Assembly (NCBI GenBank): GCA_965248925.1
Contig: CBDFLE010000005.1
Coordinates: 1,728,001 to 1,792,000 of the forward strand
Direction of reading: 5' to 3'
DNA from: Candidatus Multivoradales bacterium
GTDB taxonomy: Bacteria > Acidobacteriota > Thermoanaerobaculia > Multivoradales > J023
Length of the DNA stretch: 64,000 nucleotides
The notes below the pieces were generated by a model. The model had not been told where the DNA came from, made no database searches, and saw nothing but the letters and a program-made list of their open reading frames with translations. Position 1 is the first letter of the stretch, and each line of letters opens with the position of its first letter. This document shows, piece by piece, positions 37,379-40,342 of this stretch. The position numbers were made by a program, and so were the translations under genes.

Positions 37379-37404
37379 CAGAAGTCAGAAATCAGGAATC
37401 AGAA
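37379..37404 (-). repeat. Four tandem 7-nt repeats T(T/C)CTGA(T/C) at the NACHT-FGE 3' end
   Basis: Minus strand TTCTGAT TCCTGAT TTCTGAC TTCTG. Confidence 0.7.
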
Positions 37405-40342
37405 TTCGCCAGGGAGAGAACCACTCGAAAACCGATGTCGCCGAGGAAGTTCCCAGGATCGAACCCGAGCGAGAAGCGCAGCGAGCGAAGTCTCCGGAAT
37501 TCCAGTAAGACCCTCCCCTGAGGATCCTGAAGCCTCTTCTTTCAACTTCTTCCCTCTCGTCTGGCTGCCAGCGATAGCCGTACTGCTCCGACCGTGCATC
37601 TTCGCCCCATAGGGTCGAAGTCCACTCCCAGACATTGCCAATGGCGTCTTGTAAACCGAACCCGCCCTGCCCCTCTGGGAACATTCCCACGGACGAGGTT
37701 TGGCTGAGGCCGGTCTCGCGTACATTGGCTTTCTCGGGATCATACTGCGTCTTCCAGGGCCAAATGGTCTGGGCTCCGCCTCGGCTAGCCCGCTCCCATT
37801 CAGCTTCGTTGGGCAAATGTACCCCGAAAGGTTGGCGGCCAACGCCTCGCGGCAGGGGCGCTCTGCGGGTAGTTCTTAGACGCCGACCTAGCCAGCGGCT
37901 GAACGCCAGCGCCTCGAACCAAGAAATGCCCACCACCGGCCGGCTGGGCGAGGCCCAACGCGGATGCCCCCACCAAAAAGGCAGCTGGCGCTTCTCCGGC
38001 GGGCGCCGAGCGAGCCAATCGAGCCAGTTCTTGCGCTCTTCTTCACTCAACCCTTCGATTTCAGGCTCCAACTCACCGCGCAGCCAGGCTAGGCCGCGCT
38101 GGCCCCAGAGATCTGGGTCGTCGTAGTCGACTTCTCGTAGGAAAACCGCGTATTGGGTGTTGGTGATCGGATAGCGACTGATCCAGAAACGGCGCAGCTT
38201 GACCGGGTGAGCGGGCTTTTCCCAGTCCTTGGCCTCGGGGTCGTCGTCGGGGCTGCCAAGGATGAAGCTACCGCGAGGGATGGTCAGCCAATCGATGTCG
38301 GGCCAGACAGTTTCGCCCACGGTGGTGGTGGCGACGCCGGGCCGCGAATCGCCCAAACGGCCGAGGGCATCGCCGGCTTCGAGGCGTTCTTTGGCCGGTA
38401 GATGGCCGCCTGCCACCAGGCGGCTCAGCCATTGGCGAATACGCTCCAGCTGCATGGCGAGGGTGGGCTCGTCCGGCGACAGAAAAGGTGGCTGGAAGTT
38501 GTTGGCCGTTCCTTGCTCTGCCGCGGCCTGGCCCAAGCGTAGCTCGATCGCCAGCAGCCCGGACACCAGGGCACGCCGCCACTGAATATCCTTAACCTGA
38601 TCGACCTCATCTGGAGGATCGCTGGGGAGCAGCAAGAGCAGGGATTCGAGCAGCGACCCGGTGCCACCGCGAGCGATCTTGCCGTAGCCCAATAGGACGA
38701 CTTCCCGCCACCACAGAGGGTCGACTTCGAGTTGCCGGATCAAGGCTCTGGAACCGCCACGATCGGCAAGATAGTGCGCCGCCAGGTATTCCTGAATACA
38801 ACGGTGCGGGAACATGTACACCCCGTCGCGGGGACTGATCAGAAGGCCGGCACGGTCGCGCAAGTAGGCGGTGAGTTGGCGGGTGGTGAGGTCGCCTTGT
38901 AGATCCTCGAAGGCCTCTAGCAACTCATGATGACTGATGTCGGCCGGCCGGTCGACGGTCTGGCCGCTCTCCAGGGTCTCAGACTCAGCCTCGCGCTGGC
39001 GCTGATGAACCGCGAAGGCCAGGGCCGCCAGGGCGTTGAGCAAGCGGGACTCGGGAACTTTGAGCACTCTGAGGATGCTGGGTTCGGTGATCTCCTTTTG
39101 GCTCTCGTCGTCCCAGACCCGGCGCTTGTCTTGCCATCTGTAGAGCAGCAGGTCAGTGCTGGTGGCGTAGAGATCAGCGCGGTCTTCAGGCAACTTGCCG
39201 CTGGCGTGCAAGGTCGCCATCAAGGTAAGCAGTAAAGGCTGCGAGGCCAGGTCTGCGAGGTAGCTCTGATCAGCGATGGCATCGCGCAGCTCCTTGGCTT
39301 TGGCCGCAACATTGAGCGCATCGGTATCTAGCGAGGAACGCACCACCTGGTACCAACGCTCGATGAAGGTCTCGACCTGCGGCTGGCGAAATGGCGCCAC
39401 ACCCAGCGTCTCGAAACCGGACAGCGGCCGGCTTTCTGCGCTGTAAGCGTAAGGACGGGCGGTGACCAGCAGCCGCGATGGCTGCTCGCCGAAGGAGGCC
39501 GCCAGGTCTTCCACCGCCTGCAGCAAGCGCTCGCGGCGGTCGGCGGTGGTCGGCACTTCGTCGAGGCCGTCGAGAATCCACAGACCTCCATCGGTCAGCA
39601 GGCGGCCGCGTAGCAAGTCCATCAGCCGGCGGGCACCGGCCGGATCGATTGCCTCGTCCAGGCTGGCTTGCAATGCGGTCCACAGCAGGCTGGCTTGACC
39701 TTGGCCCAGCCGCGGCACACTGCCCGCCAGTTGACGCAGGGTGAGCCGCACCGGTACCAGCCCCACCAGGCTTTCGGGTAGGCGCCGGTCGCCGGTGGCT
39801 AGCAGGAAGCAGAGGTGCTGAGCGAAAGTGGTCTTGCCGGAGCCCGGATCACCGAGCAGGATGTGATGCCGGGCCTGGCCAGAGACCGCTTCGAGCAAGT
39901 CGCGGTGCTCTCCGTCAGCACCGCGCGCTAGCCGCCAGGACCAATCCCGGCAATCTTCGTCCTCTTTCGGGACGGGCGGCGTCGAGACTTCCAGCTCGAC
40001 GTAGACCTGCGACAGGCGAAGGTCGCTGTTGGCGGTGACGAAACGTGGCTGCACCTTGCCCAGCGGTAGTCGCTCGGCGCGGCCAGCTAGCCACTGCAGG
40101 TAGCTGGCGTAGAGATCATCGTCCGAGAGCGCATTCGCATCACCGACAACAATCTGGGCGTTAATGACGCTGCCGCCAATGGCTAGAGCACCCGCGCTGG
40201 CACTGACCGGCCTTGGCGCCTCTGCGGCCTGCTGACCTAGCTCTTGCTCTATGCGTTGCTTGCGCTCTTCGAGTGCGCGCATCTGCTGCTCGATGTCTTC
40301 GAGCACTGCGGCGCTGCCATCCTGTTTCAATCGATCGGACAT
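37385..40342 (-). CDS. NLR-like STAND protein: coiled coil + amyloid-like motif + NACHT + FGE-sulfatase/C-type lectin domain; frameshift in the last ~25 codons
   Basis: GDPGSGKTT, ILDGLDE, VTAR, PLLL, FPHRCIQEYLAA; YPITNTQY, PVVGISW, LPNEAEWE, GNVWEW, RGGSY; RBS GGGGAG before ATG 40342. Confidence 0.9.
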   Translation of the reverse strand: MSDRLKQDGSAAVLEDIEQQMRALEERKQRIEQELGQQAAEAPRPVSASAGALAIGGSVINAQIVVGDANALSDDDLYASYLQWLAGRAERLPLGKVQPRFVTANSDLRLSQVYVELEVSTPPVPKEDEDCRDWSWRLARGADGEHRDLLEAVSGQARHHILLGDPGSGKTTFAQHLCFLLATGDRRLPESLVGLVPVRLTLRQLAGSVPRLGQGQASLLWTALQASLDEAIDPAGARRLMDLLRGRLLTDGGLWILDGLDEVPTTADRRERLLQAVEDLAASFGEQPSRLLVTARPYAYSAESRPLSGFETLGVAPFRQPQVETFIERWYQVVRSSLDTDALNVAAKAKELRDAIADQSYLADLASQPLLLTLMATLHASGKLPEDRADLYATSTDLLLYRWQDKRRVWDDESQKEITEPSILRVLKVPESRLLNALAALAFAVHQRQREAESETLESGQTVDRPADISHHELLEAFEDLQGDLTTRQLTAYLRDRAGLLISPRDGVYMFPHRCIQEYLAAHYLADRGGSRALIRQLEVDPLWWREVVLLGYGKIARGGTGSLLESLLLLLPSDPPDEVDQVKDIQWRRALVSGLLAIELRLGQAAAEQGTANNFQPPFLSPDEPTLAMQLERIRQWLSRLVAGGHLPAKERLEAGDALGRLGDSRPGVATTTVGETVWPDIDWLTIPRGSFILGSPDDDPEAKDWEKPAHPVKLRRFWISRYPITNTQYAVFLREVDYDDPDLWGQRGLAWLRGELEPEIEGLSEEERKNWLDWLARRPPEKRQLPFWWGHPRWASPSRPVVGISWFEALAFSRWLGRRLRTTRRAPLPRGVGRQPFGVHLPNEAEWERASRGGAQTIWPWKTQYDPEKANVRETGLSQTSSVGMFPEGQGGFGLQDAIGNVWEWTSTLWGEDARSEQYGYRWQPDEREEVERRGFRILRGGSYWNSGDFARCASRSGSILGTSSATSVFEWFSPWRILIPDF

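Follow-up and report, generated by a model that had tools for sequence, protein, structure and literature searches.

Cellular diversity-generating retroelements (DGRs) of clade 5D are described as acting on signal transduction ATPases with numerous domains (STAND NTPases, of the NACHT or nSTAND type) that are fused to C-type lectin (CLec) folds, with two such targets per cassette (Dore et al. 2024, PMC10907252). In the available text of that report, the DGR-diversified NACHT-CLec proteins are proposed as bacterial 'antigen sensors'. NACHT-CLec targets of DGRs, remote targets and incomplete loci have been described already, and the locus that we report here is a degenerate case. It lies in a stretch of 64,000 nucleotides (hereafter the window, G000:C5:1728001-1792000) from the genome of a Candidatus Multivoradales bacterium (G000; 7.98 Mb in 6 contigs, 96.9% complete, 62% GC). 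A gene in this window encodes a STAND NTPase with a NACHT domain and a C-terminal FGE-type CLec domain, and the 3' end of this NACHT-FGE gene is likely an orphaned, frozen variable region (VR) that was written by a DGR and is now frameshifted.

The NACHT-FGE protein resembles the clade 5D targets, as the available text of PMC10907252 describes them, in its central NACHT domain, in the single C-terminal FGE-type CLec domain that ends in the VR and in an N-terminal extension without a known domain. The cassettes of related genomes moreover carry two such targets, as those of clade 5D do. Unlike the clade 5D targets described there, the gene has a frameshifted VR, and no cognate template repeat (TR), Avd or reverse transcriptase (RT) was found in G000. 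The same text presents the remote target of 'DGR 1' in Thiohalocapsa PB-PSB1 as the sole locus of the study without observed diversification. That target is likewise stand-alone, away from RT and TR, and without detectable variation, whereas the VR described here matches no resident TR (54-57% identity at non-A sites). With the DGR of Bordetella phage BPP-1 (Mtd/TR/Avd/bRT), the experimental model of these elements, the locus shares adenine-specific differences between TR and VR and the position of the VR at the 3' end of a CLec-fold gene. The BPP-1 target, however, is a phage receptor-binding protein and ours an NLR-like (NOD-like receptor) NTPase, and the indels that the available text of PMC12875486 reports for BPP-1 are multiples of three in AAC repeats, while here a single base causes a frameshift.

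The open reading frame (ORF) of the NACHT-FGE gene begins with TTG as assembled; its likelier start is the ATG at 40342, from which the protein opens with MSDRLK. Pfam assigns residues 187-358 to NACHT (47.2 bits, cut-off 26.7) and residues 711-986 to FGE-sulfatase (154 bits, E 7e-45), and the P-loop of the NACHT NTPase is visible in the translation as the Walker A motif GDPGSGKT. Both the Pfam match and the alignment to TRs place the VR in the last part of the FGE/CLec-type fold, at the C-terminus of the protein. The upstream neighbour of the gene is gcvP, on the opposite strand.

The DGR origin of the VR is apparent from its relatives. Each of the four closest homologues, in genomes of other genera (G008, G010, G011 and G012), has a second VR copy in its own genome, at 87-91% identity. 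Two of these second copies are AAC-rich TRs (G008:C225:9363-9439 and G011:C22:334203-334278); every difference between them and their own VRs is at an adenine, and none of the 57-59 non-A positions is changed. The ORFs that adjoin the two TRs match Pfam bAvd (E 3e-19 and 3e-20) and RVT_1 (E 2e-14 and 1e-18), and the cassettes are ordered as target 1, RT (~357 aa), bAvd, a TR of ~80 nt and target 2. In G008, the second NACHT-FGE target and then an ORF of 131 aa complete the cassette. The homology of both TRs to the VRs stops right after the stretch that encodes GFRVVLS. The remaining second copies (G008, G010 and G012) are further VRs with a VR-type tail. G010 (contigs C458 and C88) and G012 (C844 and C130) hold two VRs of the lineage each, which differ from each other at adenine-type positions only.

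Compared with these two TRs, the VR of G000 is changed mainly where the template has adenine. Relative to the G008 TR, 12 of 17 adenines are changed and 9 of 59 other bases (Fisher p 2.9e-5), and relative to the G011 TR 15 of 19 and 12 of 57 (Fisher p 1e-5), a bias that was measured on same-lineage TRs of other genera only. Other foreign VRs show a similar adenine bias against the two TRs, and a TR-versus-TR control shows none (p 0.5-0.9). Searched against G000, the foreign TRs match this VR alone and, weakly, TR2. The VRs of the four relatives likewise match G000 at this locus only, with 73-83% DNA identity over 59-154 nt that extends past the stop codon into a series of heptamers, whereas the proteins upstream of the VR are just 28-46% identical between G000 and the relatives. 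This is the pattern that homogenisation by a shared TR lineage would give. Within the core after the arginine codon, third-position C is kept in 8 of 12 codons, AAC-templated ones included, while positions 1 and 2 differ there, and AGG and GAG of the TR have both become GGG. A VR can hence be recognised without its own TR by comparison with same-lineage TRs of other genera.

An earlier note on this DNA, made without database searches, had proposed a DGR-type VR in the FGE/CLec fold fused to NACHT at 37379-37520. The proposal is borne out by the comparison with related genomes; the span proves narrower, as homology to the relatives' TRs confines the VR to 37413-37488. The run of NNC codons on which the note had drawn is not significant on its own: such codons make up 13 of 24 in the VR and 14 of 26 from RGG to GFR, versus 39% of the 977 upstream codons (binomial p 0.10 and 0.09). 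As a separate observation, five consecutive codons (TTC CTC GGC GAC ATC, 37431-37445 on the minus strand) are common to this VR and the second VR of G012 (G012:C130:2225-2334). They correspond to AAC/GAC positions of the TRs, the host proteins are 28% identical, and either chance or convergent selection may account for them.

We found no element in G000 that could be the writer of this VR. The genome holds 12 RVT_1 places, three of which belong to complete DGRs (D1, D2 and D3; Table 1), each with one TR and two FGE-type VRs and with 86-100% of its TR/VR mismatches at adenines. None of the three is a suitable source, as the VR is 54-57% identical to their TRs at non-A TR sites versus 89-93% for the six cognate VRs; noncognate pairs lie at 53-71%. 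The resident DGR RTs share only 33-38% identity with those of G008 and G011. Within the lineage of the latter two, RTs from different genomes reach 53-65%, and none of that lineage was found in G000. The VR itself occurs once in the genome by BLASTN (word sizes 11 and 7), and a search of the 64-kb window for remnants of an RT, Avd or TR returned noise only (best E 0.14). The statement of the earlier note that neither RT nor template repeat is visible in the window thus holds. The note had also taken the lack of any TR or DGR RT in the genome as grounds for giving up a DGR target; three complete DGRs are present, but none has a fitting TR, and neither a second VR copy nor an RT of the cognate lineage accompanies them. 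Neither a cognate TR nor an RT/Avd of the matching lineage could therefore be assigned to the VR in G000.

The VR carries a 1-nt deletion. On the minus strand, the arginine codon CGC (37471-37469) is followed by TCGGG (37468-37464) and then by TTC (37463-37461), exactly as had been reported from the letters alone. The spacing from RGG to GFR is 26 residues in 4 of 4 homologues (L018-L021), whose tails read GFRVVLSLA(N/H/Y)(P/S)(D/E)(S/F)-stop. Because the same interval here consists of 24 codons and 5 bases, 77 nt versus 78 nt in the homologues, one base is missing. In the motif CGC AAC AGG AAC, the aligner opens the gap at the initial A of the first AAC. As assembled, the frame reads RGGSYWNSGDFARCASRSG and then an unrelated tail: beyond RGGSYWNSGDFARCASR, 26 unrelated residues lead to the stop at 37387-37385 on the minus strand. 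The homologues align with the protein at residues 33-985 with 43-46% identity, and the best matches in 30 related genomes (46-49% identity) all end at query residue 985-991, the site of the shift. The FGE-sulfatase match ends at model position 237 of 255, versus 254 of 255 in target 2 of G008. Among the 30 related genomes, no close orthologue of the protein was found, and a whole-protein search of wider genome contigs returned two distant loci (an Anaerolineae metagenome-assembled genome with 42% identity and a spurious archaeal match) and no close alleles. Upstream of the deletion the reading frame is intact across 985 codons.

Four public sequencing runs (X1-X4) contain the region, all from one sample of one study that is probably the source of the assembly. 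Over 36800-38300, the Logan contigs of X2, X3 and X4 (depth 17-22) each run through without a single difference or gap; such contigs drop rare variants, and X1 yielded just two short unrelated pieces and is uninformative. Since three per-run assemblies agree, the deletion belongs to the sampled population's DNA rather than being peculiar to a single assembly. The homologue spacing and the contigs of three runs together confirm that the deletion is real and that the GFR terminus is out of frame, as had been suspected. Of the origins that had been offered for the indel, an assembly artefact is unlikely, given that the contigs of three runs carry it, a population variant is a candidate and a retrohoming error is plausible. 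We also considered a programmed -1 ribosomal frameshift, since slippage at G GGT would bring the ribosome back into the ancestral frame, and rejected it: there is no canonical slippery heptamer, and the homologues are in frame and offer no comparative support.

Just past the TR homology lies a tail that is specific to the VRs. In BPP-1, the initiation of mutagenic homing (IMH) element is located just past the TR homology. The VR-specific element here occupies the same position as the IMH of BPP-1, and since the relatives' TRs lack 37376-37412, this stretch is a candidate for an IMH-like element in target recognition. We know of no tandem TGA heptamers in BPP-1. Here, the heptamers (37403-37376, minus strand) place TGA at 37401-399, 37394-392 and 37387-385, one in each frame. 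Tandem heptamers had been noted earlier as four units; they are present, but amount to ~3.5. Three TGAs at a period of 7 occur at just 16 loci in G000, and this one alone follows a GFR-coding motif. The same tail with heptamers follows seven VRs of G008, G010, G011 and G012 and does not follow their two TRs. A 12-mer at the 3' boundary of TR and VR, otherwise invariant in the 10 sequences aligned, carries two substitutions in this VR only, and the GFR-coding part contains three changes that are synonymous in the ancestral frame (CGT->CGA, TTG->CTC).

Short tandem repeats that follow the TR homology and are absent from the TRs were also seen after many VRs of different DGR lineages (L041-L057 and D1-D3 of G000). 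They include TGA heptamers (up to 8x CCTCTGA, in L043) and TTGA-type heptamers (D2, D3, L047 and L053), while the VR flanks of D1, L055 and L056 hold scattered GCGGAGC motifs. Whether three-frame stops are a general feature of VRs was assessed by counting genes in which each of the other two frames also has a stop no more than 30 nt from the true one. With 9 of 35 genes (34 VR genes and this one) versus 14.5% of 1672 control ORFs of G000, the case is unconvincing.

Together, these observations are best explained as follows. The FGE/CLec domain would end in a VR of ~76 nt, written by a DGR of a lineage that, in related genera, sits beside homologous genes; here, the gene and a small partner ORF stand beside gcvP without a cassette. 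As no cognate TR, Avd or RT was found in the assembly, the VR appears orphaned and its diversification to have ended, and we infer that the cassette was lost rather than never present in G000. A single-base deletion in the first AAC-templated codon would then have shifted the frame and replaced the last conserved strand region (GFRVV...) by the 26 unrelated residues, with the next of the three out-of-phase TGAs ending translation. The deletion itself may have arisen in error-prone reverse transcription. In an intact system, by analogy with the targets in the available text of PMC10907252, ligands would be sensed by the FGE/CLec domain, whose binding face the DGR rewrites, and NACHT would be the switch. 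The frameshift removes the last 18 FGE model positions, including GFRVV, so the sensor is probably nonfunctional, and without a TR the frameshifted allele would not be overwritten. To judge from its sequence, the receptor is most likely crippled, as a young pseudogene or as a null allele beyond overwriting.

Several points weigh against this interpretation. G000 apparently comes from a metagenome sample and is 96.9% complete, so that a cassette could be on an unbinned contig or an extrachromosomal element. The VR pairs of G010 and G012 also lack a TR in their own fragmented assemblies, so that a TR missing from an assembly says little in general. Variation was judged from contigs, where rare variants drop out. 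Because the adenine bias was measured on TRs of other genera, the comparison includes 9-12 non-A differences as well, and ligand-contact (AAC) codons are where an FGE homologue of any kind would be expected to depart from a TR; the NNC enrichment by itself is not significant. The loss of function, finally, is deduced from the loss of the last 18 Pfam model positions. If the interpretation is correct, the locus shows an antigen sensor that has outlived its diversifier: it keeps the scars at adenines and the tail on the target side, but lacks a template and has a frameshift frozen in place. Genome surveys that are based on TR/VR pairs will miss such fossils, and gene callers will give them a wrong C-terminus.

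We surveyed DGR loci of related genomes in two sets. The first was obtained with the RT of G008 in 24 genomes of the family, which gave 21 places in 10 genomes, all of which were examined. Self-BLAST matches of 50-400 nt with 70-99.5% identity, at least 5 mismatches and at least 80% of the mismatches at one base yielded 35 VRs in 20 of the 21 loci; a pair at L055 (201 nt, 97.5% identity, 5 mismatches, distant from the RT) was left out. A second set came from a search for the bAvd family in 300 genomes of the order, with 43 places in 35 genomes; the 31 places not yet covered, taken as 30 regions, added 24 VRs in 18 regions. Assemblies of the surveyed genomes are mostly fragmented; the genome that holds L063 (G199) is a single contig. 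Relative to their own TR, 7 of the 59 VRs have a frameshifting indel (Table 1). The VR of L061 has an in-frame +3 insertion, and in L051 a gap lies at the 5' edge and the ORF is intact. One of the seven is resident in G000: VRb of D3 (G000:C5:147741-147857), whose cassette is intact, has a 1-nt deletion in AAC AGG of the motif CGC AAC AGG AAC, and the D3 target is thus also out of frame. As frameshifted VRs are common near true DGRs, the lesion described here fits DGR biology and is not exceptional.

The positions of these indels suggest that they may arise in reverse transcription. In the TRs, 21.7% of positions are adenine and 45% are adenine or adjoin one. Five of the seven frameshifts can be placed at a template adenine, which gives p 0.007 if adenines alone are counted and p 0.16 if their neighbours are included, and the placement of a gap within an AAC codon is ambiguous. 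Three independent indels (this VR, VRb of D3 and L079) lie in CGC AAC AGG AAC, a common motif of these TRs. In the available text of PMC12875486, indels in multiples of three within AAC repeats are put down to template slippage, and PMC7826257, in the text available, reports deletions at abasic template sites. A full-text literature search, with supplements outside its scope, found no description of single-base frameshifts in natural VRs.

We tentatively propose that DGR reverse transcription also makes +/-1 and +/-2 indels at template adenines, so that about one VR in eight of this order (7/59) is out of frame, with recurrence in CGC AAC AGG AAC. While the retroelement is present, such indels would switch NLR-like sensors OFF reversibly; loss of the cassette, as here, would lock the sensors OFF, and the out-of-phase TGA heptamers would cap aberrant products in every frame. 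Taken as a whole, this proposal is speculative and we think it rather unlikely to be right in full. The survey of frameshifted VRs, which still calls for confirmation on reads, is the sole part of this analysis that goes beyond the literature seen. If raw reads or cDNA data bear it out, DGRs would impose a measurable cost on their targets or provide an on/off switch.

The most serious competing account is that the deletion arose by spontaneous replication slippage after the DGR was lost, unconnected with reverse transcription. The ambiguity of the gap leaves room for this, since the lost base could be a templated C were the codon TCC, and two of the seven surveyed frameshifts are at non-A positions, while with the wider class (A or next to A) the excess is not significant. 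The three synonymous changes in the GFR-coding part also hint that selection acted on the protein until recently. Yet the gap can be placed at a template adenine both here and in five of the seven surveyed frameshifts, the same motif was hit three times independently, and seven indels in ~7.3 kb of TR-aligned VR sequence is far denser than we would expect for coding DNA in general. Slippage thus deserves to be kept in mind, as a somewhat improbable origin of the deletion.

A different possibility is that the gene is an active remote target, the cognate TR, Avd and RT lying outside the assembly on an unbinned contig, plasmid or prophage, and the frameshift being a transient null allele that can be overwritten. 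The available text of PMC10907252 documents NACHT-CLec DGR systems with remote and trans-served targets, G010 and G012 hold VR pairs whose TR is absent from their assemblies, the VR-type 3' tail with its heptamers is intact and so is the remaining ORF of 985 codons. These points are set against the lack of a TR and of an RT of the lineage in 7.98 Mb and 6 contigs at 96.9% completeness, the two substitutions in the boundary 12-mer that occur in this VR only of 10 aligned, and contigs of three runs that cross the VR without an alternative. We regard an active remote target as quite improbable. The working remote target that the earlier note had envisaged is unsupported, as no fitting TR, second VR copy or cognate RT was found in G000; that the contigs of three runs show no variant is weak evidence in the same direction.

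Could the gene be intact in the cell and the indel an artefact of sequencing or assembly? The missing base does lie beside short runs (GGG, TT), the usual place of consensus errors, and all runs come from one sample and are probably the same data as the assembly. Runs of 2-3 bases are not prone to error, however, and three per-run assemblies (depth 17-22, contigs of 17-56 kb) are identical across 1501 nt. Contigs so long and deep require accurate reads, and the adjacent gcvP is full length (939 of 939 model positions). An artefact is therefore very unlikely. That the region is an ordinary FGE C-terminus never touched by a DGR, its likeness to VRs a matter of family conservation and chance and its deletion an ordinary pseudogenising mutation, is scarcely credible: the non-significant NNC enrichment, the lack of a TR in G000 and the expectation that homologues differ most at ligand-contact codons would allow it, but it leaves unexplained the 73-83% DNA identity to foreign VRs that includes the noncoding heptamer tail while the upstream protein is at 28-46%, the third-position C kept in 8 of 12 core codons as AAC-templated positions 1 and 2 differ, and an adenine bias at p of about 1e-5 with a flat TR-versus-TR control.

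Downstream of the NACHT-FGE gene is an ORF of 128 aa that belongs to no known family, with no match in Pfam, NCBIfam or PADLOC. DUF5955 from a protein atlas is an unconfirmed lead only. The ORF is 30% identical to the 131-aa ORF directly after target 2 of G008, which itself has a weak PDC-M14B match (E 3e-4). Its N-terminus shares a Gly/Val/Ser-rich motif of 27 residues with the N-terminal region of the NLR (residues 69-96 of the protein as assembled), with a local alignment score of 70 that was reached in 0 of 500 shuffles. The corresponding pair of NLR and small ORF in G008 has a weaker match (12 of 500 shuffles), and the two motif copies within G000 are more alike than the cross-genome pair. 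The shared motif and its G008 counterpart make a homotypic adaptor or effector contact plausible, and the product of the 128-aa ORF is a probable adaptor or effector partner, as far as can be predicted from these alignments.

An amyloid link had been suggested for this receptor earlier. According to the available text of Dyrka et al. (10.1101/2020.01.06.895854), Bell/BASS pairs adjoin bacterial NLRs and carry the motif at the C-terminus of a Bell-domain protein. The pair described here resembles them in that a short motif is common to the N-terminal region of an NLR and a small, predicted-helical protein from an adjacent collinear gene. It differs from the pairs described there in that the motif is N-terminal in the small protein, the gene is downstream of the NLR and no Bell or other recognised domain is present. 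Of the suggested link, the shared motif between the NLR and the small ORF is thus real, while the layout is unlike that of the published Bell/BASS pairs, and an amyloid function would be putative. A HepT-like ribonuclease ORF, a 474-aa ORF and a Peptidase_M14 protein neighbour the NLR pair on its downstream side (Table 1).

Table 1. Coordinates of the NACHT-FGE locus and its neighbours (window positions unless a contig is given), of the resident DGRs of G000, and of the frameshifted VRs surveyed.
Feature	Position	Strand	Basis or remark
NACHT-FGE(CLec) STAND NTPase gene	37385..40423	-	ORF list and translation; 1012 codons as assembled, from TTG
Probable variable region	37413..37488	-	Homology to G008 and G011 TRs; 76 nt here, 77 nt in relatives
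1-nt deletion site	37464..37468	-	TCGGG where relatives' TRs have AAC AGG
Ancestral tail frame, now out of frame	37392..37463	-	Ends GFRVVLSLANSDS-stop at 37394-37392; matches homologue tails
VR-specific 3' tail with ~3.5 tandem heptamers, (T/C)CTGA(T/C)T type	37376..37412	-	Absent from relatives' TRs; candidate IMH-like element
NLR-side copy of shared motif	40136..40219	-	Local alignment
128-aa ORF, no known family	36955..37341	-	N-terminus carries motif common with NLR N-terminal region
474-aa ORF	34372-35796	-	Weak HTH_3 match
HepT-like ribonuclease ORF	33725-34273	+	E 1e-30
887-aa Peptidase_M14 protein	30694-33357	+	
Resident DGR D1	G000:C6:1659740-1662692 (~1.660 Mb)		TR 134 nt; VRs at 1659740-1659873 and 1662559-1662692
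Resident DGR D2	G000:C6:4814692-4817399 (~4.816 Mb)		TR 125 nt; VRs at 4814692-4814816 and 4817275-4817399
Resident DGR D3	G000:C5:145049-147857 (~0.146 Mb)		TR 118 nt; VRs at 145049-145166 and 147741-147857
Frameshifts in A-containing codons (5)			L044 +1; L052 -1 (TGG AAC); G000 D3 VRb -1 (AAC AGG); L075 +2; L079 +1 (AAC AGG)
Frameshifts at non-A positions (2)			L063 -1, within GFR-coding part; L089 -1, after GFR-coding part

Other RVT_1 places of G000 lie outside the three DGRs. Repeats of ~37 nt at a period of ~76 nt (G000:C6:4116630-4119860) stand beside an RT gene (4121715-4122326), in what looks like an RT-associated CRISPR array. Three places with identical scores of 143.4 bits and frames of 465-518 aa (G000:C5:1072953-1073597, C6:2421218-2421862 and C6:4643316-4643960) are probably copies of one group II intron, and two more pairs of RVT_1 places in the genome have equal or near-equal scores.

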